Source: Phycicoccus sp.
GTDB lineage: Bacteria; Actinomycetota; Actinomycetes; Actinomycetales; Dermatophilaceae
DNA length: 64,000 bases
Direction of reading: 5' to 3'
Assembly (NCBI GenBank): GCA_039812375.1
Contig: JBDIAO010000003.1
Span: 10,949 to 74,948, forward strand
Part shown: in pieces, positions 32,242 through 52,200 of the stretch
Layout: every line of letters begins with the position of its first letter
Numbering within the stretch: the first letter of the stretch is position 1
The notes under the pieces: model-generated
Seen by the model: only the letters and a program-made list of their open reading frames with translations
What the model was told of the DNA's origin: nothing
Database searches by the model: none
Translations under genes and position numbers: made by a program

Positions 32242-35200
32242 TCAGGAGGTGGGGGGCGCAGAGCCACCGCGCGCGGCGCCAGCCTGGGCCCGCGCGGCGT
32301 CCACCTGTTGACGCAGCCGCACCCCGCGCGGCTTGAGGTGCGGCATGAAGTGCGGCACGCCCTCACCCTGGTCGAGCCTCACCCACCAGCGGAAGGCCCG
32401 GTCCCGGTAGATGAGGTCGACCAGGTAGCTGTCGTCAGGAGTGAGCGCGCCTGGGGCGTTCGACGAGGAGCTGCCGAAGTCGGCGGCGGTGGCGACAAAG
32501 GGGGCCACTTCACCAGCCCGGCGGCACTCGTCTCGGCGGATGCTGGCCAGGACCCGCCAGGGCACGACGACCGGGACGATCACGGTGAGCACCACCCCGA
32601 GAACCACCGAGAGGGCTGCCAGGGAGCGGGCCCACAGCATCCCGGAGACGTCGGCTGGGTCCGTGATGAGGAACACCGCGACGGCGAGGTAGACCACCCC
32701 GTAGACCCAAGACCACCCCGCCTGCACACCCGCGGGATTGTCGACCCGCGGGAAGGACCACGTGGAGCCGGTGTCGGCGCGGACCTCCTGGAGCCGCTGC
32801 AGCGCGAAACCAGCACAACCCGCCAGCACGAATCCCGCGGCTGCCAGGACCACACCCGTCGCGATGCACCAAGCCAGGTGTTCGCGCAGCGCGGCATACA
32901 TCGTGGTCCAGCCCACCCCCACAGTCCAGGCTCCCAGTGCGAGCACGGCGACAACCGCAGCAAGCCGCCACCCCTCGCGCACGAGGAGCCGGGCCAGTCC
33001 ATGCACCCGACGGCGGGTTCCTTCGACGAGGTGTCCCAGGGTCGAGGCATTCGGGGCCGCCGGGGGTGGTAGTCCCATTCGGGTTGCGAGGGCGCCCAGG
33101 GCGGCATACGGACTACCCAATGCCGCCGGCAGCGAGCCGAGGAGCATGAGTCCCACTGCGAACAGGACGGCAGCGCCGACGACACCTACGCCGTGCACGG
33201 CACCGGCCAGATCCTGCCCGGTCCCCGACCGGATCCGGTCCACTGCCGCGGCGACGAGGGGCACGATGGGCGTGAGCAGGACGAGCCCGTGGAGCATCGT
33301 CCCGGACCGGAGCGCGCCATAGGCGAGGGCGAAGAGGAGCAGGCTGACCCCGACCAACCCAGCGGGTGCGGAGATACCGCTGGGCAGGGCTCCGAAGAGT
33401 GAGAGCACGACGAAAACCCCACCCAGGGCCAGCCCGAGCAGGGCCAACCCCTTGGCCAGCACAGCTCGCGAGGTGAGTCCGGTCATCGCCCAATAGCCGA
33501 CGAGCATGCCGCCACGCACAGCACGGGTGAGCGGGCGGAGCGCGCCGAGGCCGGAGCGGGCCGAGTCCAGAGTCGTCGCAGCCACGGCGGCAGCCGTCGT
33601 CGCAGAGCGCAGGAACAGGTCGCTGCTCACCTCTGCCTCCAGCGGCTCTCGCCCGATCCCGGCCCGGTCGAAGGCGGCGAGCACAGCCACCCGGTCGGCA
33701 GCTGCCACGGCCTCCGCCTCGTGCTGTTCGACGATTCTCGACACCCGGGTGACCAGGTCAGCGTTCTCGGCCAGGAAGAACTGTCCATGCGACCGGGCGT
33801 TGGCCCCGTCGGTCGCATCACCGGTGATCGCCTGGACCAGCGCCGGCAGGTCCGTGGGGGCCACGTCGAGGTGGATCGACCAGGCGAAGAGTGCGGCAAG
33901 CCCGGGCATTGCCGGCGAGAGGTCCCCGAGCTGGACACGGTCGACATCGAGGACGGCGGCCAGCTCATCGACCGCCCTGGCGCGCAGCTCGACGAAGCGC
34001 GGGTCGCCAGTCACCGGCGAGCCCTCGAAGAGGGTGCCGACGAGGTGATCCACGGTCGCGGTCGCCCGGTTCCGCGGGTCCTCACCGCTGGTGTCGGACA
34101 GGTAGCCGCTGAGGATCGCCGTCCGACGTAGCCGGGCTGGCTGGAGCACCGTCAAGGCGAGGACCGTGGCCGCGTCGAGCCGCCCCCAGATCCAGTCGTT
34201 GAGCCGCCAGGAGCGCTTGATGAACCCGCCGAAATGCTTGACCTGGAGGCCGCCGAGCTTGTCGGCTGCGCTGCGGGTGTAACGCATGAACGGGCTCTGA
34301 GTCTGGGCCGAGAGTTGGACGAGCTCGACCGGGATCGTCATGCCGGTGGCGGTCTCGTCGCCGAGTGCGGTTGTGGCCACCTCAAGCTGGAGCAGGCGGG
34401 TGAGCATAGCGTCGGCGGAGTTCTCCCCCACATTCAGGAACGTCGCCCAGGCTCCCAACCCTGAGTCGGCGACCAACGCGCGTGCAGCCGCCGCGCCGGG
34501 GTTGGCGCCCGGCCCGGCCGAGGTGGTCACCGCGACCAGGATCGGGACGATCCGCACCACCTGGGCCACGACTGCGTCGACGAGGGTCCTGATCTTCCCG
34601 CCCACTGACCCGGGGTCCGCGCGGATCCGGGTCAGCCACGCCATGAGCGCCCCCTGCACCTCATCGAACCGCTTCTGCGCCAGCGGCAGATCGCCGGTGG
34701 CTCGATGCACCGCGCCGGCCTCGGCCTGGGCGACCTGCCCGGCCAGGCAGTCCAGCCCGTCCCAGGACCCACCGAGCATACGGATGGCATAGCAGCCGAG
34801 CCGGAAGGCCCAGTAGGACTGGTTGGGTTCCAATGTGGACAGCACCGGATCGGTGTCCCAGGGGTCGTCGATCTCGCTGCGGGCCTGGGCGATGTGCTCG
34901 CCGGCCTCGGACACGACCTTGAAGGTGTCCGCGACAGTGTCGAAGTCCGCACCCGGCGGCAGCACCCAGACCAGCCGCCGGATCACATCGGCCGCAGCCT
35001 CCACGACCCGAGCCGCACCAGAGTCGCCCCACCCCCATCCGGGCCCAGCGTCCGGCTTCCCCGCCGTGGGCAGGGTGGCGGGGATGTAGGGCAAGCCACC
35101 CTGAATCCCGCTCGCCCGGGGCGCCGACATTGAGCCCGTTCCCTGCGCCGTGTCTGCGCCCCGGGACGGGTCGTCAAGCCACATCTGGGCCGACTCCGCC

Positions 35201-36573
35201 GCTCCCTGGATCCGCTCGTAGGTCCAAGATGCTGCCGCCGTGCGACGCTCGGGCGGCACCAGGGCCAGGGTCTGGAGCCGTCGCTGCGCCAGGTCTCGAG
35301 CCGCCCGCCAGATCCGCAACCGGCGATACTGCGCAAAGAGGCTGTCAGCCAGCTCCGCCACGGCCTGCGGGCTGCCCGAGGCGGCTGTCTCGAGGATGTC
35401 GCTGCGAGTTCCCCGCCGATCTGCCGCTGCTCGGTTGTGCTCCTCGATCTCCTCGACGAACGTCCGACCCCCCTGCGCACTCAAAGCACCGAGGACCTGG
35501 GTCATCGTCTCCCGCAACGTCGGCGGCTCGGTCAGCGCGTCCGGCGGATCCAGGCCGGGCTGCGGCGCGTGCGGATAGACCAGGAGGAGCACCCGCCGGA
35601 CTGGGCGCGCAGCCGGCATGGCCTGGATGGCGCGCAGGGCGTACTGGGTCGGGGTGTTGGCAAGCAGCCCTCCGTCGACGGCGAAGCGGGACCGGTCACC
35701 GGTGCGCGCCGGATCGCCCCAGGACTCCACGACCGTGGCCAGGTCGGGCCGCATACCCTGGTCCTCCAGGCTGCGAGCGCTGCGAGCCGGATCCTCGCCG
35801 ACGGGCAGGAACGTCGGCTCAAAGGCGAACGGGAAGCTTGCCGAGGCCCGCGCCGCCAAGGCCATGCGGGCTGCGGTCTCTCGGATCGCCCCCGGGGCGA
35901 ACGGGTCGGGAGTGGGAGCGCGGGTCCGTGGATCCACCCTCGGGATCGGCCACCTGCTCCACCGGAGCTGGGCCGCATGCAGCTCCTGGGGGAGCTGTTG
36001 GCCCAGCGCGTCAGTGGTCACGAGCTGGTTGCCGCGCAGGACGGTCGTGGCCATGGTCAGATCCATCGGGGCCTCGGCCGGGGAACGCCAGGCCAGGGGT
36101 GTGGCCATCGCACTCAGTGCCGCGTTGAGCTGCGGCAGGAAGTACTCGTCACCGCGCATGAGCGAGGTCGGTGCGCCCCGGAACGGCTGACGCAGCAGCG
36201 TCTCGATCTGGCCCTGCTCGATCCACACGTCCCGCAGGGCGCTGACATCCGCCCGGGCGTTCACCTGGGCCAGGGCCAGAGCCGCTCCGTTGATCCCGCC
36301 GGCCGAGGTCCCGGCGATCACGTCGGACCGCGCACTCGCGCCGGCGAGGCGGAGCATGAGCTGGTATGCCGCGGGTCCACCGCCACCTTGCCCAGCCTTG
36401 ATCAGCCGGTCCAGCTCAACGACCGCACCACCCATCCAGACCGCGAGGCTGACGCCGCCGTTGAGCACCACGGCGAACCGGATCTCCTCCGCCGGCACGT
36501 CGCGGTGATTCCGGCTGTGATTCCGGCTGTGATTCAGATGGGCAAGCAGGCTGCCCGTCCCGGCCGCGCCCAT
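32242..36573 (-). CDS. giant patatin-related phospholipase (TIGR03607/DUF3376-like) fused to a C-terminal polytopic membrane domain
   Basis: 1443 aa from ATG 36573. Gly-rich loop LNGGVSLAVWMGG (aa 37-49), nucleophile elbow GTSAG (Ser90), catalytic Asp FAVDGGLLANTP (Asp300). DUF3376-type block FGGFIKRSWRLNDWIWGRLDAA (aa 781-802). About 8 hydrophobic helices at aa ~1020-1340, then a soluble ~100-aa tail. Confidence 0.85.
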   Translation of the reverse strand: MGAAGTGSLLAHLNHSRNHSRNHRDVPAEEIRFAVVLNGGVSLAVWMGGAVVELDRLIKAGQGGGGPAAYQLMLRLAGASARSDVIAGTSAGGINGAALALAQVNARADVSALRDVWIEQGQIETLLRQPFRGAPTSLMRGDEYFLPQLNAALSAMATPLAWRSPAEAPMDLTMATTVLRGNQLVTTDALGQQLPQELHAAQLRWSRWPIPRVDPRTRAPTPDPFAPGAIRETAARMALAARASASFPFAFEPTFLPVGEDPARSARSLEDQGMRPDLATVVESWGDPARTGDRSRFAVDGGLLANTPTQYALRAIQAMPAARPVRRVLLLVYPHAPQPGLDPPDALTEPPTLRETMTQVLGALSAQGGRTFVEEIEEHNRAAADRRGTRSDILETAASGSPQAVAELADSLFAQYRRLRIWRAARDLAQRRLQTLALVPPERRTAAASWTYERIQGAAESAQMWLDDPSRGADTAQGTGSMSAPRASGIQGGLPYIPATLPTAGKPDAGPGWGWGDSGAARVVEAAADVIRRLVWVLPPGADFDTVADTFKVVSEAGEHIAQARSEIDDPWDTDPVLSTLEPNQSYWAFRLGCYAIRMLGGSWDGLDCLAGQVAQAEAGAVHRATGDLPLAQKRFDEVQGALMAWLTRIRADPGSVGGKIRTLVDAVVAQVVRIVPILVAVTTSAGPGANPGAAAARALVADSGLGAWATFLNVGENSADAMLTRLLQLEVATTALGDETATGMTIPVELVQLSAQTQSPFMRYTRSAADKLGGLQVKHFGGFIKRSWRLNDWIWGRLDAATVLALTVLQPARLRRTAILSGYLSDTSGEDPRNRATATVDHLVGTLFEGSPVTGDPRFVELRARAVDELAAVLDVDRVQLGDLSPAMPGLAALFAWSIHLDVAPTDLPALVQAITGDATDGANARSHGQFFLAENADLVTRVSRIVEQHEAEAVAAADRVAVLAAFDRAGIGREPLEAEVSSDLFLRSATTAAAVAATTLDSARSGLGALRPLTRAVRGGMLVGYWAMTGLTSRAVLAKGLALLGLALGGVFVVLSLFGALPSGISAPAGLVGVSLLLFALAYGALRSGTMLHGLVLLTPIVPLVAAAVDRIRSGTGQDLAGAVHGVGVVGAAVLFAVGLMLLGSLPAALGSPYAALGALATRMGLPPPAAPNASTLGHLVEGTRRRVHGLARLLVREGWRLAAVVAVLALGAWTVGVGWTTMYAALREHLAWCIATGVVLAAAGFVLAGCAGFALQRLQEVRADTGSTWSFPRVDNPAGVQAGWSWVYGVVYLAVAVFLITDPADVSGMLWARSLAALSVVLGVVLTVIVPVVVPWRVLASIRRDECRRAGEVAPFVATAADFGSSSSNAPGALTPDDSYLVDLIYRDRAFRWWVRLDQGEGVPHFMPHLKPRGVRLRQQVDAARAQAGAARGGSAPPTS
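36505..36535 (-). repeat. in-frame 12-nt tandem repeat (about 2.6 copies) near the 5' end of the giant patatin gene
   Basis: Plus-strand GTGATTCCGGCT x2 plus GTGATTC. It encodes NHSR-NHSR-NH at aa 14-23. Confidence 0.9.
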
Positions 36574-36713
36574 AGGTTCACACCCTTCTTCCGAGCCCAG
36601 AGTCCATCGTCTCGCCGCGGGTGCCTGTCTGTCACCGCTAACTCCAGGGCACTTGTGCCCGGTGTTGGCCGGTTGAGGGCCAGGCCGACCTCGACTCACC
36701 TACCATCACCGGT

Positions 36714-37686: not shown

Positions 37687-39783
37687 ATGGACCAGCCCAC
37701 CGCGGGCCGGCATCGCCGTGACGGAGCGCGCGGGTCGGGACGGTTGCGCCTCGTGGTCCCGGCGCTGCTCGTCCTGATCTGGCTCGTCGTCGGCGGGATG
37801 GCCGGCCCCTACACCGGGAAGCTCAGCGGGGTCGCCAAGAACGACAGCGCGTCCTTCCTGCCGGCCTCTGCGGAGTCGACGAAGGCGCAGGCCGAGCAGC
37901 AGCGCTTCGCCACCACGCAGACGGTGCCCGCCGTCGTTGTCGCAGCCCGGGACACCGGGATCACCCCCGCCGATCGCACCTTCCTGGTCTCGGCCCTGGA
38001 CCGAGTCAAGACCCTCCCGCTCGTCGACGCCGCGGCGGTGTCACCGCTGGTGCCCGCGCAGGACGGCAAGGCACTCACCGCGTTCGTGCCCATCGAGAAC
38101 TCCGGCACGGTCCGGGTGGCGGTCGCGGATATCCGCCACGAGCTGGCCGACCCGCCACCGGGCTTGACCGTGCTGGTCACGGGACCAGCCGGGATCATCA
38201 CCGACCTCGTCACGGCGTTCGCCGGCATCGACGGACTCCTCCTCGTCGTCGCCGCGTCGGCCGTCGCTCTCATCCTGCTCGTCGTCTATCGCAGTGCGCT
38301 GCTGCCTCTGGTCGTCCTGCTCTCCGCGGTGTTCGCGCTGGGCCTGGCCAGCTTGGTGGTATATCTGCTCGCCGACCGGGACGTCATCACACTCAACGGC
38401 CAGAGCCAAGGCATTCTGTTCATCCTGGTCTTCGGGGCCGCCACCGACTACGCGTTGCTGATGGTGTCCCGTTTCAGGGAGCAACTGCGCGACACCGCCG
38501 ACCGGGTGGGCGCGATGCAGGTCGCCTGGCGCTCGACACTGGAACCGATCAGCGCCTCCGCCGGGACAGTCATCCTCGGCGTTCTCTGCCTGCTGTTCTC
38601 CGACCTGAACTCCAACCGCGGCCTGGGACCGGTCGCCGCCATCGGCATCGCCTGCGCGTGGCTGGCGACGGTCACCTTCCTGCCCGCCGTGCTCACCCTG
38701 CTCGGCCGGGCGGCCTTCTGGCCGCTGCGCCCGGCTCTCGGGTCGGCGCATCCAGAGACCAGCGGATGGTGGGCCGCGCTGGCAGAGAGGATCGCCCATC
38801 GGTCGCGCGCCGTCTGGGTGGTGACCAGCCTCGTCCTCCTGGTGTGTGCGGCATTCCTCACCCAGCTGCACGCCCAGGGAACCTCGCAGACCGACGTCTT
38901 CCTCCGTCCCGTCGACGCAGTCGCCGGTCAGAAGTTGCTCACCAAGCACTTCCCCGGCGGCAGTGGCTCGCCAACGGTGATCCTCGCCAACGCGGACGCG
39001 CAGGCGCAGGTGCAGGCGGCGGCCATGATGCCCGGAGTTGCCTCCGCCACCATCGTGTCGGGCCCGGACGGTGCCCCGGTTGTCGTCGACGGACGGGTGC
39101 AGGTCGAGGCAGTACTCACCGACCCAGCCGACTCCGAGCAGGCGGTGGCGACCGTGGCCCATCTGCGGCAGGTGGTCCATACGGTCCCGGGGGCCGACGC
39201 TCTCGTCGGTGGCCCGACCGCGGTCCAACTCGACACCCAGCTCACCTCCGAACGGGACCGGCTCGTCATCATCCCGATCGTCCTCGTCGTCATCTTTCTC
39301 ATCCTCGCGGTGCTGCTGCGCGCCCTCGTCGCCCCGCTGCTGCTCATTGCCACCGTGGTCCTTTCGTTCGCCGCGACCATGGGGATCACTGCGCTGGTGT
39401 TCAACCACGTCTTCGACTTCCCCGGAGCAGATCCCTCGGTACCGCTCTTTGCGTTCGTGTTCCTTGTCGCTCTGGGCATTGACTACAACATCTTCCTGAT
39501 GACCCGCGTGCGCGAAGAGACCCTGACCCTTGGGACCCGCGACGGCACCCGGCGCGGTCTGGCCCTGACTGGCGGGGTGATCACCTCGGCCGGTGTCGTC
39601 CTGGCAGCCACCTTCGCTGCGCTTGCGGTCATCCCGCTGCTCTTCCTGGTCCAGGTCGCCTTTATCGTCGCGTTCGGAGTCCTCCTGGACACCCTCGTCG
39701 TGCGGACTCTGCTCGTCCCAGCTGCCGTGATCGACCTCGACCGGAGCACCTGGTGGCCCTCCCGACTCAGCCTTCCCCGCTGA
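37687..39783 (+). CDS. MMPL-family (RND superfamily) transporter
   Basis: 698 aa with two 6-TM bundles and soluble loops. MMPL-like blocks AATDYALLMVSRFRE and GIDYNIFLMTRVREE. Confidence 0.9.
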   Translation: MDQPTAGRHRRDGARGSGRLRLVVPALLVLIWLVVGGMAGPYTGKLSGVAKNDSASFLPASAESTKAQAEQQRFATTQTVPAVVVAARDTGITPADRTFLVSALDRVKTLPLVDAAAVSPLVPAQDGKALTAFVPIENSGTVRVAVADIRHELADPPPGLTVLVTGPAGIITDLVTAFAGIDGLLLVVAASAVALILLVVYRSALLPLVVLLSAVFALGLASLVVYLLADRDVITLNGQSQGILFILVFGAATDYALLMVSRFREQLRDTADRVGAMQVAWRSTLEPISASAGTVILGVLCLLFSDLNSNRGLGPVAAIGIACAWLATVTFLPAVLTLLGRAAFWPLRPALGSAHPETSGWWAALAERIAHRSRAVWVVTSLVLLVCAAFLTQLHAQGTSQTDVFLRPVDAVAGQKLLTKHFPGGSGSPTVILANADAQAQVQAAAMMPGVASATIVSGPDGAPVVVDGRVQVEAVLTDPADSEQAVATVAHLRQVVHTVPGADALVGGPTAVQLDTQLTSERDRLVIIPIVLVVIFLILAVLLRALVAPLLLIATVVLSFAATMGITALVFNHVFDFPGADPSVPLFAFVFLVALGIDYNIFLMTRVREETLTLGTRDGTRRGLALTGGVITSAGVVLAATFAALAVIPLLFLVQVAFIVAFGVLLDTLVVRTLLVPAAVIDLDRSTWWPSRLSLPR

Positions 39784-39797: not shown

Positions 39798-39863
39798 GGA
39801 CCCAGCAGCATACGAGCGTGCGGCAGGATGGAGGGGACAAGGCACCCATCCCGGGAGGACGCC

Positions 39864-40892
39864 ATGACCGAGCAGGGCGCCGTGACCTTCGAGCTGTGGT
39901 CGCGGCAGAGCAGGCTCAACGTCGACGTGGACGGGATGGCCCGGTGCAGCGCCGAGACCCGCACCCTCTACCCGACCGTCATCAAGGCGGCGGACCGCGA
40001 GCTCCGCACGCTGGCTTTTCTCGTGCCACAGCCGACGAAGAGCTTCCCGGACACCGTCCTGGTGATCGTGGCTGGCCGGCGGATCGGATTCTTGCCCAAG
40101 TCGGTGGCACCCGACTACCGCCCGGTCCTGAACAACCTCATCGAGTCCGGACTGACTCCGGTCACACCCTGCCGAATCTATGCACACGAGACCCGGATCG
40201 ACCTGCGAGCAAGTTGGCTGGGCCGTGGCCGGTGGAACACCCACTTCAACGTCATGGCCCGGGTCCTGCTCGATGAGCCCCACCTGATCGCACCGGTCAA
40301 CCCCGTCCCGCGCCAGGCCCACCGACTGCTGCCGCCGGGGGTCGCGGTGCAGCTCAAGGACGAGGAGCACCATCTGGACGTCCTTGCCCCCCTTGTCGGT
40401 GACCGCGGGCAGGCCTGGGTCCTGGCCACCCTTCACCTGGCTTCGGCCAAGCCCGGTGGCGGTGAGCTCGTCGAGGTCCGCGTGGGTGACGAGCCGGTCG
40501 GTGTGCTCACTGCGGCGATGAGCCGGCACTATGCGCCGACCATCGCCCACCTGGACGGCGATGGCGTGCGCGCCGCGGCACGGGTCCTGTTGACCGGCAA
40601 CCCGCTCAGCGTCGAGGGCACATTGTATGCCGCCCGCGCCCATGAGCTTGCCGCCGGTTGGTTCGAGGGTGCCCCCACGTGGTCCACGGTGAGCACCCTG
40701 CGTCCGGTCACCCGCACCATCGCTGACCTCGAGGCGGCCGTGGACATCCCGCGACGGCCGACCCGGATCCTCTTCAACCCTCCGCCGGGGTGGCCGGTTG
40801 CGGCCGACGAGGCCGGGCCCGGACCGGGTTGGCAACCGGATCCGTCGTGGGCGGCGCCCCCCGAGGGGTGGGAGTTCTGGGTGGCCCGTTGA
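39864..40892 (+). CDS. hypothetical protein with two HIRAN-like repeats and a Pro/Trp-rich C-terminus
   Basis: ATG 39864 is preceded by GGGAGGA. Internal repeat VLVIVAGRRIGFLPKSVAPDYRPVL / VEVRVGDEPVGVLTAAMSRHYAPTI. C-terminus PPPGWPV...PGWQPDPSWAAPPEGWEFW. I recognise no enzyme motif. Confidence 0.55.
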   Translation: MTEQGAVTFELWSRQSRLNVDVDGMARCSAETRTLYPTVIKAADRELRTLAFLVPQPTKSFPDTVLVIVAGRRIGFLPKSVAPDYRPVLNNLIESGLTPVTPCRIYAHETRIDLRASWLGRGRWNTHFNVMARVLLDEPHLIAPVNPVPRQAHRLLPPGVAVQLKDEEHHLDVLAPLVGDRGQAWVLATLHLASAKPGGGELVEVRVGDEPVGVLTAAMSRHYAPTIAHLDGDGVRAAARVLLTGNPLSVEGTLYAARAHELAAGWFEGAPTWSTVSTLRPVTRTIADLEAAVDIPRRPTRILFNPPPGWPVAADEAGPGPGWQPDPSWAAPPEGWEFWVAR

Positions 40893-41027
40893 GCACGTCG
40901 CTGACCCCACGCGACGTCGCACGTGCACCACGAGAGACCGCGCCGTCTCCTCGTGCCGCCCCGCTGGCCTCACGAGATCCTCTACCACTGAGTAGTCTTG
41001 GCTGGCACACAGACTCAGGAGGGGTGC

Positions 41028-42512
41028 ATGGCCAAGAAGATTGCTGCGGGTGACCTGACCTGGCTGCTGATGGACCGCCCGAACAACCTCATGCAGGTGC
41101 ACGGGCTCATCGGCTTCGACACTGTGCCGGACTTCGCCAAACTCACCGATCTCGTCATGGACCGGATGGTCGGCAAGTACCGGGTGCTCAGCCAGATTCC
41201 GGTCGAACGCAAAGGCAAGTGGCGCTGGGTCGACGACAAAGACTTCGACATCGCCCGGCACGTCACCCGGGTCGTCCTGCCCGACGACGACCCCGAGACC
41301 ATGCGAGCGCACATGTCGTCCCTGTTCTCCACGCCTTTCCCCCGGGAGCATCCACTGTGGCAGTTCCAACTGGTCACCGGTCCGGACGAGGACGGACCCG
41401 GCTACGTCATCGGCCGCTTCCACCACGGTCTCGCCGACGGCATCCGGCTGGTCCAGCTCATCATCGGCACGTGTGACCCGGTCACGGGAGCAACCCCACC
41501 GGCTGTGGGCCGGGGAGGTGAGCAGCATGAGAACCCCTTCGAGCGTCTCCTCAGCTTTGCCGAACAGTCGGTGACCGACACGGTCGACTTCGCCACCGGC
41601 GCCGGAAAGGCCATCTCCAAGGCTGGACGCCAGCTGGTCACCACGAGCAACCCGCTCAATCTCGCTCACTCCGTCGGGGAAGCGCTCGAGACGGTCCGTG
41701 ACCCGGTGCGCCTCATGGATGCCATCACCTCGGTGGGTGCGGTGGACAACGAGTGGTCCAACTCGTGGCGCGAGATCGGGCGCATGCTCCTCGCCGACGA
41801 GTCCGACGCGGGGGCATGGAGTGGCCGCCCGGGCGTGGACAAGTCCGTCGCGTGGTTCGAGGGCTACCGTCTCGACGACGCCAAGGCGGTGGCTCGCGCC
41901 TTTGGCGGGACGCTCAACGACGCACTCATGGCAGCGGTGTCCCTCGCCCTGACCGACTACCTCTCCGAACGCGGCGTCAAAGACGTGTCCGACCTGTCCT
42001 GGCTCATGCCGGTCTCCTTGCGTCCGGTCGACGCCGCCCTGCCGCCGACCCTGGGCAACCACTTCGCCGTGGTGCAGATCTCCATGCCCTTGGGGATCCG
42101 CGACCCCGTCGCCCTCATCGCGGAGATCGGTGAGCGCACCACTCGGCTCAAGAACTCCGCCGAGCCGGTGGTCGCCTTTGGTATGCAGCGGGTCATCGCC
42201 GAGTCCCCCCTGGCGGTCGCCCAACGGATCACCAACTACTTCTCCAACAAGACCATCGGGCTGCTCAGCAACGTCCCCGGACCGCGAGTCTCGCTCACCA
42301 TGGCCGGCGCACCGGTACGCACCGTCCTCGGCTGGGTGCCCACGTCGGGGGACCAACCGATCGGGGTATGTCTGATCAGCTATGCCGGCACGGTCGGGGT
42401 CGCGGTCGCCACCGACGCCCGGATGATTCCGGACCCACCACGCATCGCCGAACTCATCCACCACCATCTCGACACTCTGGCCGCCGCGGCGGCCGTGACT
42501 GCCGCCCGCTGA
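41028..42512 (+). CDS. wax ester synthase / diacylglycerol O-acyltransferase (WS/DGAT)
   Basis: 494 aa from ATG 41028, with AGGAGG upstream. Catalytic HHxxxDG motif FHHGLADG. C-terminal block LSNVPGP. Confidence 0.9.
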   Translation: MAKKIAAGDLTWLLMDRPNNLMQVHGLIGFDTVPDFAKLTDLVMDRMVGKYRVLSQIPVERKGKWRWVDDKDFDIARHVTRVVLPDDDPETMRAHMSSLFSTPFPREHPLWQFQLVTGPDEDGPGYVIGRFHHGLADGIRLVQLIIGTCDPVTGATPPAVGRGGEQHENPFERLLSFAEQSVTDTVDFATGAGKAISKAGRQLVTTSNPLNLAHSVGEALETVRDPVRLMDAITSVGAVDNEWSNSWREIGRMLLADESDAGAWSGRPGVDKSVAWFEGYRLDDAKAVARAFGGTLNDALMAAVSLALTDYLSERGVKDVSDLSWLMPVSLRPVDAALPPTLGNHFAVVQISMPLGIRDPVALIAEIGERTTRLKNSAEPVVAFGMQRVIAESPLAVAQRITNYFSNKTIGLLSNVPGPRVSLTMAGAPVRTVLGWVPTSGDQPIGVCLISYAGTVGVAVATDARMIPDPPRIAELIHHHLDTLAAAAAVTAAR

Positions 42513-42569: not shown

Positions 42570-44642
42570 ATGCCAGGCAAGAAGCGGCTCGTCGTCGTCA
42601 ACATCACCCTCCAGAGTAACGAGTGGGACTACGACGAGAAGGTGTCCCTCGCCGGACAGGACTATCAGCTCGTCCGGATCGGAACGAGCGGAGACCTCAA
42701 GGCCGCTGAGGACCTGGTCTGGAAGTGGTCCCTCAAGGCCGACGCGATCGCCGTGACCGGGGCTCGCGAGGCCCAGGCCGCCGGCCTGTTCAGCGGGGAT
42801 CCCGAGGACATCCGCAAAGCTCGGGACACCACGAACAGGGTGCCCATCCACGACGGTTCCATGCTCGCCGACGTCGTCCAAGAGTGGGCGATCCGGCAAG
42901 TCCAATCCGAGATGCCGGGCCATTTCAGCAACGCCCGGGTGGTCGTCGTCGGCCAGTCGACACGACCGCGCACCATCAAGGTGCTGCGCGAGTTCACCGC
43001 GAACATCGACTTCGAGGACCCGATGAAGCGCACCGACGTCCCGCTCGCTCTGGAGTCCAACCCGGTCACGTCCAAGGCCGGCCAGGTGGGCATGATGGCC
43101 TGGCGGATGACGCCCGACGTGCTCAAGGGCGTCGCCAGTGGCCCGGCCGAGTGGGTCAGTGACAAGCTGGCACACAAGGCCGCGCGGTCGGCAGACGTCA
43201 TCGTCGGCTCCTACGCGGACATCGCGCGCTTCGGGCTCGAAGACCTCGCCGGCAAGACCGTGCTCACCAATGCCATCTCTGCGGCCCGGCTCGCCGATCT
43301 CGGCAGCCGCGGCGTGGACCTCGTCATTGACGCCACCCCCCAGCCGTTCGACTTCATGGTCGTCACCGCGATGCTCGAGGCGATGGTGGCCGCTACCCTG
43401 CCCAAGGGCAAGAAGCTGACCACCGACGCTCTCGTCGAGTTCATCACGACAGCGGAATTGGAGCCGCAGCTTCTCCGGCCCAACGGGGACAAGCGCAAGA
43501 GCCGCTTCACCTTCGTGATCCACCCCCTGTCGACCGAGTACTTCAAGAACCTCCAGGGGATCGGGACGATGTCGACCCTGCCGGGGATGGGCGGAGTCGT
43601 CGAGAAGGCCGCGGCATACATGCCCCCCTTCGTCTACTGCCACATCACCGGGATCAAGTCCCCGACCGGCGCCGAGACCGAAGGATGGCTCCTGACCGTG
43701 GGTGGCACCCCGAAGGAGATGCTCTCTCACCCACCGGAGTTCACCTACTCACGGCTGCTCGCCGCCGCGGAGATGTCCCAGAAGCTCGGGGCTCAGATCA
43801 TGGGCCTCGGGGCCTTCACCAAGGTCGTCGGTGACGCCGGAGTCACCGTCGCCAAGCAGGCGAAGCTGCCGGTCACCACCGGCAACAGCTACAGCGCATC
43901 CGGAGCCCTCTGGGCCGCCCATGAGGCGCTGCGCAAGCTCGACATCACCGAGATCGACGAGCGGGGTGTCCTGCGCGGCAAGACCATGGTCGTCGGCGCC
44001 TCCGGCGCGATCGGGTCGGTCTGCGCCCGGCTGCTCGCACTGGCCAGTGACGAGCTGTGGCTGGTCTCCCCGGAAACCGCCAAGCTGCTCGCGCTCAAGG
44101 CGGATATCGAGAGCGAGAACCCGCGGGCCGTGATCAAGGTCTCGACCAACCCGGGTGAGGCGCTGTCCGACATGGACCTCATCGTCACCGCCACCTCAGC
44201 GGCGGGCAACAAGGTCCTCGACATCATGAAGGTCAAGCCGGGCTGCGTCATCACCGACGTCGCCCGCCCCCTGGACATGTCGGCAGAGGATGTCGCGAAG
44301 CGACCCGACGTTCTCGTCATCGAGTCCGGTGAGGTCGAGCTGCCCGGCGAGAACATCAAGATCCGCGACATCGGCCTGCCGCCCAAGGTCGTCTACGCGT
44401 GCCTCGCCGAGACCATCGTCCTTGCCCTCGAGGGACGCTTCGAGACCTTCACCATCGGCCGCGCTATCGAGTGGCAGAAGGTCAAGGAGATCTACCAGAT
44501 GGGACTCAAGCACGGGATGAAGCTGGCAACCATTTCCGGGGTACGTGGCCCGTACACCGACGAGGACTTCGAGCGGGTGCGCAGCCTGGCCCTGGCCGCT
44601 CGCGCGAAGGCTGAGGGCGAGAAGGCCGAGGAGTTGTCGTGA
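42570..44642 (+). CDS. two-domain protein: uncharacterised N-terminal domain fused to an acyl-ACP-reductase-like (AAR/COG5322-type) NAD(P)-dependent thioester reductase
   Basis: 690 aa. Residues ~312-655 track cyanobacterial AAR: FTFVIHPLST vs MFGLIGHLTS, dinucleotide loop VVGASGAIGS vs VVGATGDIGS, and catalytic-Cys block VVYACLAETIVLALEG vs MFACFAEAMLLEFEG (Cys611, nt 44400-44402). RBS AAGGAG is 6 nt upstream of ATG 42570. Confidence 0.8.
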   Translation: MPGKKRLVVVNITLQSNEWDYDEKVSLAGQDYQLVRIGTSGDLKAAEDLVWKWSLKADAIAVTGAREAQAAGLFSGDPEDIRKARDTTNRVPIHDGSMLADVVQEWAIRQVQSEMPGHFSNARVVVVGQSTRPRTIKVLREFTANIDFEDPMKRTDVPLALESNPVTSKAGQVGMMAWRMTPDVLKGVASGPAEWVSDKLAHKAARSADVIVGSYADIARFGLEDLAGKTVLTNAISAARLADLGSRGVDLVIDATPQPFDFMVVTAMLEAMVAATLPKGKKLTTDALVEFITTAELEPQLLRPNGDKRKSRFTFVIHPLSTEYFKNLQGIGTMSTLPGMGGVVEKAAAYMPPFVYCHITGIKSPTGAETEGWLLTVGGTPKEMLSHPPEFTYSRLLAAAEMSQKLGAQIMGLGAFTKVVGDAGVTVAKQAKLPVTTGNSYSASGALWAAHEALRKLDITEIDERGVLRGKTMVVGASGAIGSVCARLLALASDELWLVSPETAKLLALKADIESENPRAVIKVSTNPGEALSDMDLIVTATSAAGNKVLDIMKVKPGCVITDVARPLDMSAEDVAKRPDVLVIESGEVELPGENIKIRDIGLPPKVVYACLAETIVLALEGRFETFTIGRAIEWQKVKEIYQMGLKHGMKLATISGVRGPYTDEDFERVRSLALAARAKAEGEKAEELS

Positions 44643-45475
44643 AGAACGTCAAGGGCAAGACTCTTCTGGTCACCGGCGCCGCCATGGGGATGGGCCGGCT
44701 CTTCGTGGAGCGCGCCCTTGCCGAGCAGGCGGAGAACGTCGTCCTCTGGGACATCAACGAGGACGCCCTCAACGCGACCCTCGGTGAGCTGTCCGGGGGG
44801 AGGACCAACCTCAGCGGCTACATCGTCGACGTCAGTGACCTTGAGGCGATCCAGAGCACTGCGGCCGCCGTGCGGGACGAGGTCGGCACCGTCGAGGTGC
44901 TCATCAACAACGCGGGAGTGGTGCGCGGCAACAACTACTTCTGGGAGACCGACCCCCTGGCCGACACGAAGCTGACCATCGACATCAACACTCTCGCCCC
45001 GATGTATGTCACCGGCGAGTTCCTCCCCGGGATGCTCGGCGCACCCGGCGAGTGTCGGCTGGTCAACATCGCCTCGGCTGCCGGCCTTACCCCGAACCCC
45101 CGGATGGCGGTGTATGCCGCCTCGAAGTGGGCCGTCATCGGCTGGTCGGAGTCCGTCCGTCTCGAGCTCAAGCAGGCCGGTCTCGACCACGTCAAGGTCA
45201 CCACGGTGTGTCCCTACTACGTCAACACGGGCATGTTCGACGGGGCGCGCTCCGCCCCCCTGCTGCCCATCCTCCAGCCCGACGAGGTCGTTGAGGAGGC
45301 GTGGAAGGGGATGCGCAACGGTACGCCGCTGGTCGTGCTGCCGCGCACCGTCATGCTCAGCGAGGTGATGAAGGGTCTGCTCCCCATCGGGGTCCGGGAC
45401 TTCATCGCCGACAGCCTCCTCGGTGTCTATTCCACGATGGAGGACTTCACCGGTCGCCCAGGAGCAAAGAGCTAA
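44639..45475 (+). CDS. short-chain dehydrogenase/reductase (SDR)
   Basis: TGAAMGMG, NNAG and the catalytic YAASK. GTGA start/stop overlap with the upstream reductase-like gene. Confidence 0.9.
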   Translation: MKNVKGKTLLVTGAAMGMGRLFVERALAEQAENVVLWDINEDALNATLGELSGGRTNLSGYIVDVSDLEAIQSTAAAVRDEVGTVEVLINNAGVVRGNNYFWETDPLADTKLTIDINTLAPMYVTGEFLPGMLGAPGECRLVNIASAAGLTPNPRMAVYAASKWAVIGWSESVRLELKQAGLDHVKVTTVCPYYVNTGMFDGARSAPLLPILQPDEVVEEAWKGMRNGTPLVVLPRTVMLSEVMKGLLPIGVRDFIADSLLGVYSTMEDFTGRPGAKS

Positions 45476-48036: not shown

Positions 48037-49266
48037 CTAGGGTGCCACCTCCGACGCCGAATGCGCGCTTGGTGCTGCTCCATCGAGGTCGAGGGGGCGG
48101 ATAACCAGGCCAGTGAGCGGCTTGGGGGTGAAGAAGGTCGACTTCGGAGGCATAAGGAGCCGCTCATGAGCGGTTCGGGCGATCTCGGCGACCGAGACCG
48201 GTCGGATGAGCACGCCACTGTGCGCCCGCCCGGTGACCAGCGCCTCGACGACCTCGTCGACGCCGTGCTGGTATGCCGTCTCGACGGCGACGTCGGCGAG
48301 CGCAGCTTCCAGCCACGCGCCGTCGAGGGCACGGACACCGTCGAAGGCGCCCGGGCGCGCAGTGAGCCACTCTGCTCCGCCGTCGGGACCGATGAGCGCC
48401 AGTCGGCCGAGCCGATCTAGATCGGCGATCATCGCCAGGGACGGCATGGGCGCGTCGGTGATCTCGAAGTATCGCTGCAGCGCGGACCGCACGCTGGCGT
48501 GGTCGGCACCGGAATAGAGCCGGTGGATCGCTCGGACGCTGAGCTGGTCGGGGACGAGTTCGCCGAGGCAGGCGAGGGTGAGCTCGGCGTCGGTGTCCGC
48601 TCGCCCGGTGGCGGCGCGGCACTCGTCCCGATACGCCCGGGCCACCCCGTAGCGGTGGTGTCCGTCGGCGACGAGCACCTCGGCCGAGCCGACGAGGTCG
48701 GTGATCTGCGCCATCCGCTGGGGGTCGGTGATCCGCTCGACCCGGTGCTCGACATCGTCGACCAGCACGACACCCACCGGTTCACCGGGTGCCCGCAGCG
48801 CCGCAGCAAGCCCGGTGGCCAGGGACAGGCCCCACACCGGGGAGAGGTTGGCCCGGGTCGCCCGGGTCAGGTCGAGGCGGTCCGTCGAAGCCTTCGGTGT
48901 GGTCCGCTCGTGCGGGAGCACCCCCCCGGCCCCCTCGTCGACGACCTCGAGGGCGCCGAGGACGAGGGTGAGATCGCGGTCCTCGCCACGGTCGTCGACG
49001 AAGCGCATCCGATGGATCGTGAAGGTGGGCGCCTCGTCCCGGACGAGGACGCCGTGGCCGACCCACTGCTCGAGCAGAGCCGCGGCCTTCTGGTAGCGGT
49101 CGTTCCCATCCCGGGGGACGTCCACCCGCACGACATTGTGGTCGCTGCGCCGCTGCAGGCGGTCGACGTCAGCGTCGGAGAGCACATCGTAGGGTGGCGC
49201 GGTCAGGGACGCCAGATCGGTGCTCGCGGCATAACGCAGAGCGCGGAAAGGTGCGAAGCGAGGCAT
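48037..49266 (-). CDS. DUF1015 family protein
   Basis: N-terminus MPRFAPFRALRY...LTAPPYDVLS and HERTTPKASTDRL are characteristic of DUF1015. Confidence 0.85.
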   Translation of the reverse strand: MPRFAPFRALRYAASTDLASLTAPPYDVLSDADVDRLQRRSDHNVVRVDVPRDGNDRYQKAAALLEQWVGHGVLVRDEAPTFTIHRMRFVDDRGEDRDLTLVLGALEVVDEGAGGVLPHERTTPKASTDRLDLTRATRANLSPVWGLSLATGLAAALRAPGEPVGVVLVDDVEHRVERITDPQRMAQITDLVGSAEVLVADGHHRYGVARAYRDECRAATGRADTDAELTLACLGELVPDQLSVRAIHRLYSGADHASVRSALQRYFEITDAPMPSLAMIADLDRLGRLALIGPDGGAEWLTARPGAFDGVRALDGAWLEAALADVAVETAYQHGVDEVVEALVTGRAHSGVLIRPVSVAEIARTAHERLLMPPKSTFFTPKPLTGLVIRPLDLDGAAPSAHSASEVAP

Positions 49267-49299: not shown

Positions 49300-52200
49300 T
49301 CACGGCAGGTCGGGGAGCGGGAGACCGAGGGCCCGGATCTGCTCGACGTAGCGCTGAACACTGCGCAGCTTGACGCCCTCGTAGCCACGCACGACGTCGG
49401 GCAGCCCCGCGAAGTCAACGGCCAGGTCGTAGGAGGGGGCGCTCAGGTGCGTCACGAGGTCGTGCAGCACCCGCCGGTAGTGGGCCAGCAGCTCCCGCTC
49501 GACCCGGCGCACATGGGCGTACCCGAACGGGTCGGCAGCGGTGCCGCGCAGGCGCTTGAGCGGCGCGAGGGTCCGCAACGCGACGTGGGTGGGTGGCGCG
49601 AAACCGATCTTCGTCGAGCGCCCGAGCGCGCGGAGCATCGGCGGGTGCAGGCGGTAGGTGAGCCGGCGCCCGCCCGGGACGGCGGCATCCACGAAGCGCC
49701 GCGAGCCCTGCCGGGTGAGCAGGCGGGCGACCTCGTATTCGTCCTTGTAGGCGGTGAGCTTGTACAGGTACTTCGCAACCGCCTCGGACAGGCGGGTCTC
49801 GTCGGTGACGGCTCGCTCGGCCCGCCACACGGCATCCACGACCCGCACGTAGTCACTCGCGCAGCCCAGGTCTTGGTAGCCGACGAGGTCGACCGAGCGC
49901 AGTTCGGCGATCCGTCTCGTCTCGCCGGCCATCGTCGCGCTGGCCAGCTCGGGGACGACCTGGGTGGGGGGCGACGGCGCCGGCTCGGTAGCCGGGGTCA
50001 AGGCCGCGGCGAACGCGGTCGGGTCGGCGACACCGAGCCGCCCCCACCGGAAGGCGGCGATGTTGTCCTCGATCGCGACGCCGTTGATCGTGACCGCCTC
50101 CTCGACCGCCGCCGGCGGCAGTGGCAGGGCGCCGGACTGCACGGCGGCCCCGACGAGCAGCAGGTTCGCTGCGGCGCTCGAGCCGAGCAGGGTCCGGGCG
50201 TCGGCGAGCATGTCGAGGGTGTGCACCTGGGCAACCGCGGTGCGCAACCGGTCCAGCTGCTGCGAGATGCTGCCCTGCTGCACGGCGCGATCGTAGACCT
50301 CCGGTCCGGTCGGGGTGATGGAGGTCGAGGCGACTGCGCGGGTGCGGGCCGGGTCCCCGTAGGCGAGGTTGCCGCCCTCGACGGCGGTGAGCAGGTCGAA
50401 GGCGAGGATCGCGTCGGCCCGGCCCGGGGTGACCCGGTTGGAGGGCTCGAGCGGGCCGGCCGGGTTGAAGCGCAGGTGGCCGATGACCGGTCCGGCCTTC
50501 TGGGCCAGGCCGATCTGGTCGAGCAGCTCGACCTGGTAGCCGGCGCGCAGGGCGGCGGTGGCCAGGATCTGGTTGACCGTGACGATCCCGGTGCCGCCGA
50601 CCCCGGCCAGCAGCACCGACCAGGTCGTGGTCGGTGCCTGCCATGTCGGGTCGGGCAGCGCCGGGGGCTCGAGGCCGACCCCGGCCCGGGTCGGCGGCTC
50701 GTCGGGGACCTGCACGGTCAGGAACGCCGGGCAGTCCCCAGCCAGGCAGGAGTAGTCGGTGTTGCACGAGGTCTGGTCGATCCGGGTCTTCTCACCGAAC
50801 GGTGTCATCACCGGCTGGACGGACAGGCAGTTGCTCTTCACCCCGCAGTCGCCGCAGCCCTCGCAGACGTCCTCGTTGATGACGACCCTGCTCGGGCGGG
50901 GGGCGAGCAGGCCGCGTTTGCGTTGCCGCCGTGCGTCATTGGCGCAGTGCTGGTCGTAGATGAGCACGGTGACGCCCGGGGTCTCCCGCAGGATGCGCTG
51001 GGCCTCGTCGAGCCGGTCGCGGTCCCACAGCTTCGTCCCGGGGGCGAGGTCCTTGACCCGGTGCCGCTGCGGTTCGTCGGCGACGACGATGATCCTGGCG
51101 ACCCCTTCGGCGGTGAGCTTGTGGGTGATCTCCGGGATGCCGCGTGCCCCGACCGCGTCCTGGGCGCCGGTCATCGCGACGACGTCGTTGTGCAACAGCT
51201 TGTAGGTGATGTTCACTCCGGCCGCGACGCACGCCTGGATGGACAGCTGGCCGGAATGGACGAAGGTCCCGTCACCGAGGTTCTGGAAGATGTGCTCGGT
51301 CGTGGTGAAGGGAGACTGACCGATCCACTGCGCCCCCTCACCGCCCATCTGGGTGAACCCGGTGACCTGGCTGTCCTCGCGTCGGGAGAGGGTGACCAGG
51401 GTGTGGCAGCCGATGCCGCCGCCGGCGATGGATCCCTCCGGCAGCGCGGTGGAGCGGTTGTGCGGGCAGCCGGAGCAGAAGTACGGGGTGCGACTGACCG
51501 GCAGGACCGGCAGGACCGGTCTGCGCCCCTCCGGCTCGCGCAACGGCATCCGGTCACGCAGGGCACGGTGCAAGGGGGCGTGCAGCCGGCCCGGGGTGAG
51601 CTCACCGTCTGCGGGGATGAACTCGGCGCCGCGCGCGTCGCGCCGCCCGACCACCCCGGGCCGGTTCGGCAGGTCGTAGAGCGCCTCCTTGACCTGAGTC
51701 TCGAGGAAGGGGGTCTTGTCCTCGACGACGAGGACCTCCTCGAGCCCGGCGGCGAAGGCCCGGACGACCTCGGTGGCCAGCGGGGTGACCAGCCCGACCC
51801 GCAGCACCGTGATGCCGTGCTCGCTCAGGGCCCCCTCGCCCGCGCCGAGGTCACGCAGGGCCTGCATCATCGATTCGTATGCCGGGCCGGTCGCGACGAG
51901 CCCGACCCGGGCGCCCGCCGGCGCGAGGGTGACCTCGTCGAGGCCGTTGGCGGCGGCATACGCCCGGACCATGTCGGTGCGGGGGCCGACGAACTCGGCC
52001 TCGACGGCGACGATCCGGGCGCTGCCGACCAGTGGCGGGGACTGCCGGTAGCTCCACACCTGCCCGTCCCGCAGGAGTTGCGGGGTGATCGGGTCGAGGT
52101 CGCTCACGCCGGCATCCACGACCCAGGCACCGTCGGCGACGTCGGCGACGATCTTGAGCGCGACCGGGGTGCCGCAGGCCCGGGAGAGGGCTACCGCGTG

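Follow-up and report, generated by a model that had tools for sequence, protein, structure and literature searches.

A two-module protein of Phycicoccus sp. joining a putative AAR/PigE-type thioester reductase to a probable degenerate copy of its own fold, encoded beside a wax ester synthase gene

The 64 000 nt stretch of Phycicoccus sp. contig JBDIAO010000003.1 analysed here (the window; G+C content ~70 %) carries an open reading frame (ORF) for a protein of 690 aa that is made up of two modules. The C-terminal module is related to the NAD(P)H-dependent thioester reductases that include acyl-ACP reductase (AAR), and the N-terminal module is probably a degenerate copy of the same fold. The gene is preceded by one encoding a wax ester synthase/diacylglycerol acyltransferase (WS/DGAT) and is overlapped by one encoding a short-chain dehydrogenase/reductase (SDR). 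We put at roughly 60 % the probability that the product, here called the fusion protein, is a member of a large uncharacterized two-module family which would convert an acyl thioester to an aldehyde, for reduction to an alcohol by the SDR and esterification to a wax ester by the WS/DGAT. The gene and its modules are located as follows.

42570..44642, + strand: ORF of the two-module protein (ATG start, 690 aa), with a probably degenerate N-terminal module and a C-terminal AAR/PigE-type reductase module
42570..43484, + strand: N-terminal module (residues 1–305), two α/β lobes, without a Cys at the catalytic position and without a GxxGxxG loop
43503..44564, + strand: predicted AAR/PigE/TAD-type NAD(P)H thioester-reductase module (residues ~312–665), recognized by hidden Markov model (HMM), PDB sequence and Foldseek matches

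Between 16 and 20 independent contigs from metagenomes encode the identical 690 aa protein, called with the same limits and flanked by the same neighbours. Its nearest named homologues (74–77 % identity) came from Dermatophilaceae, Tetrasphaera, Nostocoides and metagenome-assembled genomes of ‘Ca. Phosphoribacter’, and at least ~5000 homologues were returned per sequence search. An earlier note on this DNA had singled out several segments of the protein, all of which, together with the ORF itself and the TGC codon of Cys611, lie where that note had placed them: KKRLVVVNITLQSNEWDYDEKV (residues 4–25), NARVVVVGQS (121–130), FTFVIHPLST (313–322), VVGASGAIGS (474–483) and YACLAETIVLALEG (609–622).

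The best characterized match to the C-terminal half was the reductase domain of PigE, from the Serratia prodigiosin MAP pathway (4PPM, NF053554). Residues 312–677 matched positions 1–360 of the 837 positions of the NCBIfam PigE model with 185 bits (E 2e-54), against an equivalog cutoff of 850 bits that was not reached, and matched residues 2–336 of 4ppm with E 2e-27. The AAR equivalog model TIGR04058 was matched by residues 351–651 only (72.2 bits, E 5e-20; cutoff 449.7). Among PDB sequences AAR (6jzq) followed PigE with E 8e-12, and the match to the putative terminal amidation domain (TAD) of the carmabin nonribosomal peptide synthetase (NRPS) CarI was marginal (E 1e-3 over 70 residues). A full-length AlphaFold2 model (pLDDT 84.2, pTM 0.76) was compared with the PDB using Foldseek, and AAR chains were the best matches (E 1e-16 to 3e-18, AAR-normalized TM 0.71–0.76). 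The runner-up was TAD, with a TM of 0.63–0.70. A gap followed, after which came methylene-H4MPT, amino-acid and quinate dehydrogenases at E ≥ 2e-7, quinate dehydrogenase having E 8e-6 and TMt 0.45 against 3e-18 for AAR. A shikimate, quinate or amino-acid dehydrogenase was accordingly rejected as an identity for this half; shikimate dehydrogenase models scored 13–18 bits against cutoffs of 200–235, over the Rossmann segment 469–558 only, and NCBIfam models for shikimate dehydrogenase, SDR and glutamyl-tRNA reductase together gave 13–19 bits, again confined to the Rossmann segment.

The C-terminal half is therefore assigned to the thioester-reductase-type modules of the AAR/PigE/TAD (COG5322-type) superfamily, because it resembles at least two characterized members and keeps their Cys, TTG and GxxGxxG motifs. 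As judged from its sequence it is a relative of AAR, not an AAR orthologue, and stands nearer to the reductase domain of PigE. The proposal that this half is an AAR-superfamily module thus holds, with HMM, sequence and predicted fold in agreement and with the Cys, TTGN, GxxGxxG and VTATS motifs all present, and the half groups with AAR, PigE and TAD and not with the shikimate or amino-acid dehydrogenases. To say that it follows AAR closely, as the earlier note did, was an overstatement at 21–23 % identity and 72 bits against a cutoff of 449.7.

Conservation was assessed over 240 full-length close and mid-distance homologues with at least 43 % identity. In this set 160 positions were conserved in at least 97 % of sequences, and across phyla the identity was 68 % for the C-terminal half compared with 30 % for the N-terminal module. 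The positions expected to take part in catalysis and cofactor binding were the following.

44400..44402, + strand: TGC codon of Cys611, the predicted acyl-accepting nucleophile, at the N-terminus of helix 610–621; aligns with AAR C294 and PigE C296
43875..43889, + strand: TTGNS motif, T436–S440; corresponds to ‘TTGN’ of AAR and to the invariant Thr-Thr-Gly of TAD
43995..44015, + strand: putative dinucleotide-binding loop G476-A-S-G479-A-I-G482; aligned to 162-GATGDIG-168 of AAR
44067..44075, + strand: S500-P501-E502 at the end of Rossmann β2; aligned to A188-R189-N190 of AAR, E502 lying 20 residues after G482

Cys611 was invariant (240/240). In the alignments it coincides, as had been proposed, with Cys294 of AAR, which is the acyl-accepting residue of an established ping-pong mechanism (PMC7089970); Cys296 of PigE has been equated with the same residue in a study that also supports thioester reduction as the role of the PigE domain (PMC8341465). 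In the TTGNS motif T436, G438 and S440 were found in all 240 homologues, N439 in 239 and T437 in 237, and in TAD the corresponding Thr-Thr-Gly packs against the catalytic Cys (bioRxiv 10.1101/2024.10.28.620694). G476, G479 and G482 of the loop, which has been described in AAR (PMC7089970), were invariant, as were the key residues of the VTATS motif, and the other positions of TTGNS and VTATS were conserved in at least 235 of the 240.

The cofactor site departs from that of AAR at the positions that contact the phosphate of NADPH. In AAR this phosphate is bound by R189 and R193 (PMC7089970). Of the 2'-phosphate pocket of AAR (R189, R193 and R314), R189 and R193 were compared and found to be replaced by P501 and K505, and the neighbouring N190 by E502. 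The S-P-E triplet, typical of the Actinomycetota, occurred in all 119 close homologues, whilst G-R-N, which resembles the A-R-N of AAR, occurred in 82 of 120 distant homologues, mostly from Desulfobacterota; Gammaproteobacteria had A-P-E. The location of E502 after the glycine-rich loop is the classical site of an acidic residue favouring NAD(H). Because of this location, E502 is predicted to be a determinant of NAD(H) preference, and the enzymes of the window's clade to use NADH. A parallel is provided by TAD, in which an acidic residue gives preference for NAD over NADP (bioRxiv 10.1101/2024.10.28.620694), much as predicted for E502. The alternation of S/A-P-E with G-R-N suggests a lineage-specific switch between NADH and NADPH, and such covariation at the cofactor site is what a functional dinucleotide site would be expected to show.

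The strongest functional clue, overlooked in the earlier note, is the pair of genes that flank the reductase gene.

40998..42512, + strand: WS/DGAT (Pfam PF03007 and PF06974, TIGR02946), 57 bp upstream of the reductase gene; gene callers place its start 30 bp later than 40998
44639..45475, + strand: classical SDR, 278 aa (Pfam adh_short, E 1.5e-41), with a GTG start that overlaps the reductase stop codon by 4 bp

The SDR is a candidate fatty aldehyde reductase. It matches the C-terminal half of NCBIfam PRK07201 (96 bits), less specifically than it matches other SDR models, and is followed by a convergent Usp gene. A partnership of the alkane-pathway type was rejected; tblastn of the 64 kb window with a single sequence of aldehyde-deformylating oxygenase (ADO) as query gave noise only (E > 4), and no ADO-like sequence was seen. 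The absence of ADO from the window had been stated before, and the description of the protein as a ‘repurposed’ AAR-family reductase is fair in so far as it is not paired with ADO. Neither the 690 aa protein nor the annotated part of the window (~32–53 kb) contains an aminotransferase domain.

Gene neighbourhoods were also compared in the best 80 genome loci, in which flanking genes were called by a crude GC3-based gene finder backed by Pfam. WS/DGAT adjoined the reductase gene in 16 of these loci and many others had no such link. Directly upstream and co-directional was a ~363 aa NAD_binding_4 thioester-reductase-type SDR in 33 of 60 callable cases and a WS/DGAT in 12; directly downstream, adh_short proteins were found in 15 of 41 callable cases, patatin-like lipases in five and WS/DGAT in four. 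By tblastn, an orthologue of the 278 aa SDR (62–73 % identity) lay directly downstream in ~27 of the 80 loci. The NAD_binding_4 partner matches the N-terminal half of PRK07201 (253 bits).

The association with WS/DGAT recurs outside Actinomycetota and in covalent form. In Desulfobacterota a WS/DGAT gene was found just upstream in all three loci examined, preceded in two of them by a gene for acyl-CoA-binding protein (ACBP), and one locus had the order phasin/PHB_acc_N, WS/DGAT, Fer4 protein, reductase, paralogue, α/β hydrolase. A 1208 aa protein joins WS/DGAT, N-terminal module and reductase in frame and is followed by the same overlapping 278 aa SDR; other long fusion ORFs (e.g. 1090 or 1116 aa) were rejected as start-codon artefacts of the crude gene caller.

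L092 and L093, 6001–9627 (assemblies GCA_044869625.1 and GCA_044870235.1): in-frame WS/DGAT–reductase fusion P0083

In an Acidobacteriota locus the order was reductase, NAD_binding_4 SDR, PlsC-type acyltransferase, hexapeptide transferase. Ilumatobacter carries the reductase–SDR pair, and directly upstream of it, at the usual place of WS/DGAT, encodes a 1014 aa protein without a Pfam match (L004:4811–7855).

On the proposed pathway, a long-chain acyl thioester would enter the cleft of the C-terminal module; acyl-CoA is the most likely substrate, given the ACBP neighbour and the dependence of WS/DGAT on acyl-CoA, and acyl-ACP is a possible one. The acyl group would be transferred to Cys611 to give a thioester intermediate, and hydride from the nicotinamide cofactor (predicted to be NADH, from E502) held at G476-x-x-G-x-x-G would release the fatty aldehyde, as in AAR. 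The fusion protein probably makes aldehyde only, so that a separate SDR is needed for the second reduction; the translationally coupled 278 aa SDR would reduce the aldehyde to the fatty alcohol, which the upstream WS/DGAT would esterify with acyl-CoA to wax esters or a related neutral lipid.

The N-terminal module proved much harder to place. Residues 1–305 had no match in Pfam or NCBIfam, and scans of this region and of four stand-alone relatives with E-values up to 10 and 1 gave no meaningful match, the single sub-threshold hit being to RNase_P_p30 in one of the relatives. A profile of the family searched against all PDB sequences at E ≤ 10 returned one spurious match of 66 aa alone. This agrees with the earlier failure to name any relative of this region. 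An exhaustive phmmer search of 1.84e9 representatives gave 349 clusters only, and the matches were of two kinds, namely the N-termini of ~680–710 aa proteins with the same C-terminal module, and stand-alone proteins of ~300 aa. Modelled alone by AlphaFold2 (pLDDT 88.5, pTM 0.83), the module formed two α/β lobes, and Foldseek gave weak matches only, to type I periplasmic binding proteins, the ATCase catalytic chain, TAD and AAR; the top TM scores among the matches listed were 0.49 for TAD and 0.42 for AAR.

A relationship between the two modules is suggested by both structure and sequence profiles. In the full-length AlphaFold2 model the secondary structure of residues 7–302 parallels that of residues 310–657 element by element (strand, hairpin, helix, strand, helices, short strand and long helix, then a β-α-β lobe, two helices and a final strand). 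An hhalign comparison of diverse profiles aligned residues 11–299 collinearly with the C-terminal module over 243 columns with a score of 31.9 (P 0.0016). Reversed profiles and neighbouring unrelated SDR families scored 14–17, 60 column-shuffled N-terminal profiles scored 15.5 ± 2.2 (maximum 22.1), and a genuinely remote pair, the Rossmann fold of the C-terminal module and a classical SDR, scored 30.7. The register pairs invariant or near-invariant residues (P92/P434, G96/G438, W106/W448 and E270/E614) and places Ala267 opposite Cys611, the stand-alone family having Asn at this position. It also sets NARVVVVG on the Rossmann β1 strand (KTMVVGASG), so that the segment NARVVVVGQS, previously called Rossmann-like, does align with a Rossmann strand of the C-terminal half and lacks the glycine-rich dinucleotide loop.

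On the strength of the profile–profile alignment, the order of secondary-structure elements and the Foldseek matches, it is quite likely that the N-terminal module arose long ago as a copy of the AAR-type module and has since degenerated, with loss of the nucleophile and the glycine-rich loop. Several results count the other way. The hhalign probability for the pair was 16 %, a weak signal; it emerged only with more diverse profiles after several alignment settings had been used, with no signal from low-diversity alignments (probability 0.6 %) and nothing found in global mode; and periplasmic-binding-protein and ATCase folds match the module likewise. The earlier proposal of carrier or substrate binding by the N-terminal domain drew no direct support. 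This domain is a family of its own, occurs alone as well, and is suggested to have arisen by duplication of the AAR-type fold. A fixed packing of the two modules is suggested by the pTM of the 690 aa model (0.76). Packed in this way the N-terminal module could act as an in-built pseudo-subunit that stabilizes the protein, helps to form a tunnel or regulates activity, and would form no second catalytic site. TAD dimerizes via its N-terminal domain (bioRxiv 10.1101/2024.10.28.620694) and AAR passes its aldehyde to ADO via its N-terminal domain (PMC7089970); by analogy with these, it is plausible that the module stabilizes the active module or shapes the exit of the product.

The stand-alone relatives number in the thousands and were found in Clostridia, Bacillota, Thermus and Deinococcus. 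They share 20–30 % identity with residues 1–305 (E to 1e-14 and better), have the same length and the same predicted fold, and differ in retaining the motifs SLGSSxRDH, GTDGD, GLGGIDL, VVDGSGLKNTLER and GRSFGTNVxEA, which are largely eroded in the N-terminal module encoded in the window. Polar motifs that are strong in the stand-alone proteins are also strong in some distant fusions and mostly eroded throughout the window's clade. Across the stand-alone family (P0231, P0271–P0389) the conserved polar motifs were SLGSSxRDH, RxGTDGD, GLGGIDL, TPVVDGSGLKNTLER, YPTGxKQE, AGDFHFIRR and TTTPxxxGRSFGTNVxEA, and these proteins look like enzymes or ligand-binding proteins in their own right. Some NCBI entries of this kind from Thermus, Deinococcus, Clostridia and Desulfotomaculum are named ‘quinate 5-dehydrogenase’, a name for which no HMM or experimental support was found. 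In Phosphitispora the two modules are encoded by neighbouring genes, a stand-alone N-module gene and, directly behind it, an AAR-like gene (27 % identity to the C-terminal half; hhalign E 1e-71 against the family profile), which amounts to a split version of the fusion. The neighbourhoods of stand-alone genes in Thermus, Pelotomaculum, Phosphitispora and one more genome showed no consistent partner, an AAR-like neighbour being present in one only.

The fusion had been described as actinobacterial, which proved too narrow. A scan of one genome per GTDB species gave at least 600 matching stretches, of which 599 were confirmed as relatives, and a profile search found members with ~50 % identity in Desulfobacterales/Thermodesulfobacteriota, Gammaproteobacteria (Ketobacter, Hahellaceae, Litoribacillus), Acidobacteriota and Bdellovibrionales. 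Cultured carriers include Gordonia rhizosphera, G. tangerina, several Nocardioides species, Nostocoides australiense and Ketobacter alkanivorans. The database names of the members are all generic.

Members without the catalytic Cys were also found.

P0149, P0158, P0171, P0194, P0200, P0223, P0227; L096:7076–9136; L008:7932–8975: Cys-less members (whole clades of the fused family, a tandem paralogue and the split-gene partner, respectively), with Gly, Thr, Glu, Ala, Ser or Trp at the Cys position

Some of these retain GxxGxxG and TTGNS and others have lost both. Cys-less members may be pseudoenzymes working in partnership with a copy that has the Cys.

Two further ORFs on the same strand lie upstream of the WS/DGAT gene.

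37687..39783, + strand: MMPL-family RND transporter (Pfam MMPL, E 1e-106; TIGR00833)
39828..40892, + strand: 354 aa ORF between MMPL and WS/DGAT, called as a 342 aa gene on contigs L001 and L003

The MMPL gene order recurs on the independent contigs L001 and L003 and is not conserved in other lineages. For the 354 aa protein neither Pfam nor NCBIfam gave a match, and the other loci encode no relative of it near the reductase.

A number of observations tell against the wax-ester function proposed for the fusion protein. The MMPL gene is possibly the first of the same transcription unit, and a scan of 36.6–46.6 kb gave no callable promoter or terminator. Many actinobacterial WS/DGATs produce triacylglycerol rather than wax esters. 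The NAD_binding_4 neighbour found in 33 of 60 cases could itself be an acyl-CoA reductase, which would blur the role of the fusion protein, and in the Gammaproteobacteria (L009 from Ketobacter, L084 and L088) the gene lies between ppk and ppx with lipid genes absent nearby. In very distant fused clades the Cys is replaced by Gly, Thr, Glu, Ala or Ser in seven of 14 representatives, some of which also lack the glycine-rich loop; one Thermodesulfobacteriota locus has two copies in tandem, 61 % identical, the first with the Cys and the second with Gly in its place; and the AAR-like partner in Phosphitispora has no catalytic Cys. Not every family member can therefore use the Cys mechanism. For PigE itself, reductase activity failed to be reconstituted with pure protein (PMC8341465). 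As to the ppk/ppx context, the closest relatives of the window are polyphosphate-accumulating Dermatophilaceae, and a link between polyphosphate and storage lipid is possible.

These observations leave room for three other readings. The fusion protein might not be the reductase of the pathway at all, the neighbouring adh_short and NAD_binding_4 SDRs carrying out the reductions whilst it acts as a regulatory or scaffolding sensor of NAD(P)H or acyl-CoA, or it might run in the opposite direction, oxidizing aldehyde to acyl thioester in wax or alkane catabolism. The partner SDRs do match the two halves of PRK07201 (253 and 96 bits), to which the AcrB-type fatty acyl-CoA reductases belong; the Cys-less paralogues and the probably dead N-terminal module show how readily the fold becomes non-catalytic; and the alkane degrader Ketobacter has the gene. 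We nevertheless think this unlikely, as the catalytic motifs conserved across the 240 homologues are the signature of an enzyme rather than of a sensor, the cofactor-site residues covary in the manner already described, and the cluster in the window encodes no FarA-, AcrB- or FcrA-type acyl-CoA reductase that would make the aldehyde needed by the 278 aa SDR. Alternatively the aldehyde or alcohol could go into ether lipids, such as alkylglycerols or plasmalogen-like lipids, or into some other lipid of the membrane or envelope, with export by MMPL. Desulfobacterota and Acidobacteriota are known to make non-isoprenoid ether lipids. Such a role would suit the Acidobacteriota locus with its NAD_binding_4 SDR, PlsC-type acyltransferase and hexapeptide transferase, the same-strand MMPL transporter gene upstream in the window, and the fact that most loci pair the gene with a reductase and not with WS/DGAT. 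It has, in our view, only a slim chance of being correct, since WS/DGAT is found next to the gene in two phyla and also covalently fused to the protein, the phasin-like, ACBP and patatin neighbours indicate storage-lipid bodies, the MMPL linkage is limited to the closest relatives of the window, and no AGPS or PlsA/Ger-type enzyme was seen in the annotated neighbourhoods.

A role in secondary metabolism, with the module tailoring a specialized non-fatty thioester or one on a peptidyl or polyketidyl carrier, possibly by amidation, appears quite improbable. The best characterized match is indeed the PigE reductase domain, TAD is the second structural match, and COG5322-type domains occur repeatedly as fusions to transaminases in alkaloid pathways. 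However, no gene for an NRPS, polyketide synthase, carrier protein or aminotransferase was adjacent in the annotated loci or among the immediate neighbours in the best 80 loci, where the neighbours are instead neutral-lipid genes, and the strong conservation (68 % between phyla for the C-terminal half), with an occurrence in the genomes of at least 600 species, does not resemble the pattern of an accessory of a biosynthetic cluster. The reading in which the fusion protein supplies aldehyde to the SDR and WS/DGAT is thus preferred.

The catalytic module is of a familiar type, and its likenesses and differences can be set out against four groups of known systems. PigE and the fusion protein begin their reductase modules alike (KFGFIAHPTS and RFTFVIHPLS, respectively) and share the motif C[LM]AETIVLALE around the catalytic Cys (C611/C296). 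PigE, however, belongs to a pigment cluster and has its reductase at the N-terminus, joined to a class III aminotransferase to which the aldehyde is passed, whereas the reductase of the fusion protein is C-terminal, follows a 305 aa module and has no aminotransferase, in the context of neutral-lipid genes. With AAR (TIGR04058; 6JZQ, 6JZU, 6JZY) it shares the three-part fold of N-terminal domain, Rossmann middle domain and C-terminal domain, the pairing of C294 with C611, GATGDIG with GASGAIG and the VASM loop with TATS, and TTGN; it differs in having no ADO partner, in the extra N-terminal module and in its occurrence outside cyanobacteria. TAD (9E4S, 9E4U) resembles the C-terminal half (TMt 0.63–0.70) in the invariant Cys beside the nicotinamide and in the Thr-Thr-Gly, but ends NRPS modules and is proposed to amidate, whereas the fusion protein has no NRPS context. 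The supply of aldehyde or alcohol to WS/DGAT, which is the role proposed here, is also that of AcrB/Maqu_2507 (PRK07201), FarA/Maqu_2220 and the HMGR-like FcrA, and here as there a reductase adjoins WS/DGAT. Those are NAD_binding_4/SDR or HMGR enzymes, however, whose fold and mechanism are unrelated to the covalent Cys of the AAR type.

Domains of the AAR superfamily are thus known on their own (AAR), fused to aminotransferases (PigE, KecF-type) or at NRPS termini (TAD). No description of the fusion architecture or of its link to WS/DGAT was found in the open-access literature. The joining of the reductase to a degenerate twin, its setting among neutral-lipid genes and its wide taxonomic spread all appear to be undescribed. 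In one survey of bacteria carrying WS/DGAT, FarA was present in 1 %, AcrB in 31 % and FcrA in 26 %, leaving ~40 % with none of the three (PMC11948995). Rather more tentatively, and at somewhat less than even odds, the fusion proteins could make up a fourth class of bacterial fatty acyl reductase feeding WS/DGAT, broad in phylogenetic range and with the covalent-Cys AAR fold obligatorily joined to a dead copy of itself, and a new route to wax esters or fatty alcohols in the Actinomycetota of activated sludge (relatives of Tetrasphaera, Phosphoribacter and Microthrix).

Should this be so, the gap of ~40 % would be narrowed by a widespread reductase of the AAR type with a link to WS/DGAT, and the route in activated sludge could provide a storage lipid together with a sink for reducing equivalents. 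The AAR fold, known from alkane synthesis in cyanobacteria and from pigment pathways, would then take in neutral-lipid metabolism in general, and oleochemical engineering would gain an aldehyde-forming enzyme that possibly uses NADH. The family would also be a clear case of an enzyme–pseudoenzyme self-fusion that can be compared with its split, tandem-paralogue and Cys-less variants, and thousands of entries now labelled ‘dehydrogenase’, ‘predicted amino acid dehydrogenase’ or ‘quinate 5-dehydrogenase’ would gain a rational name.

Two other groups of genes were noted in the window. A protein of 1147 aa with TPP_enzyme_C, POR and DUF6537 regions (49300–52746, − strand) is encoded next to a DUF1015 protein (48037–49266, − strand) and is apparently unrelated to the cluster. 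On the other side, ~6 kb upstream of the cluster and on the opposite strand, lies a gene for a patatin-like phospholipase of ~1485 aa with a DUF3376 region (32242–36699, − strand).

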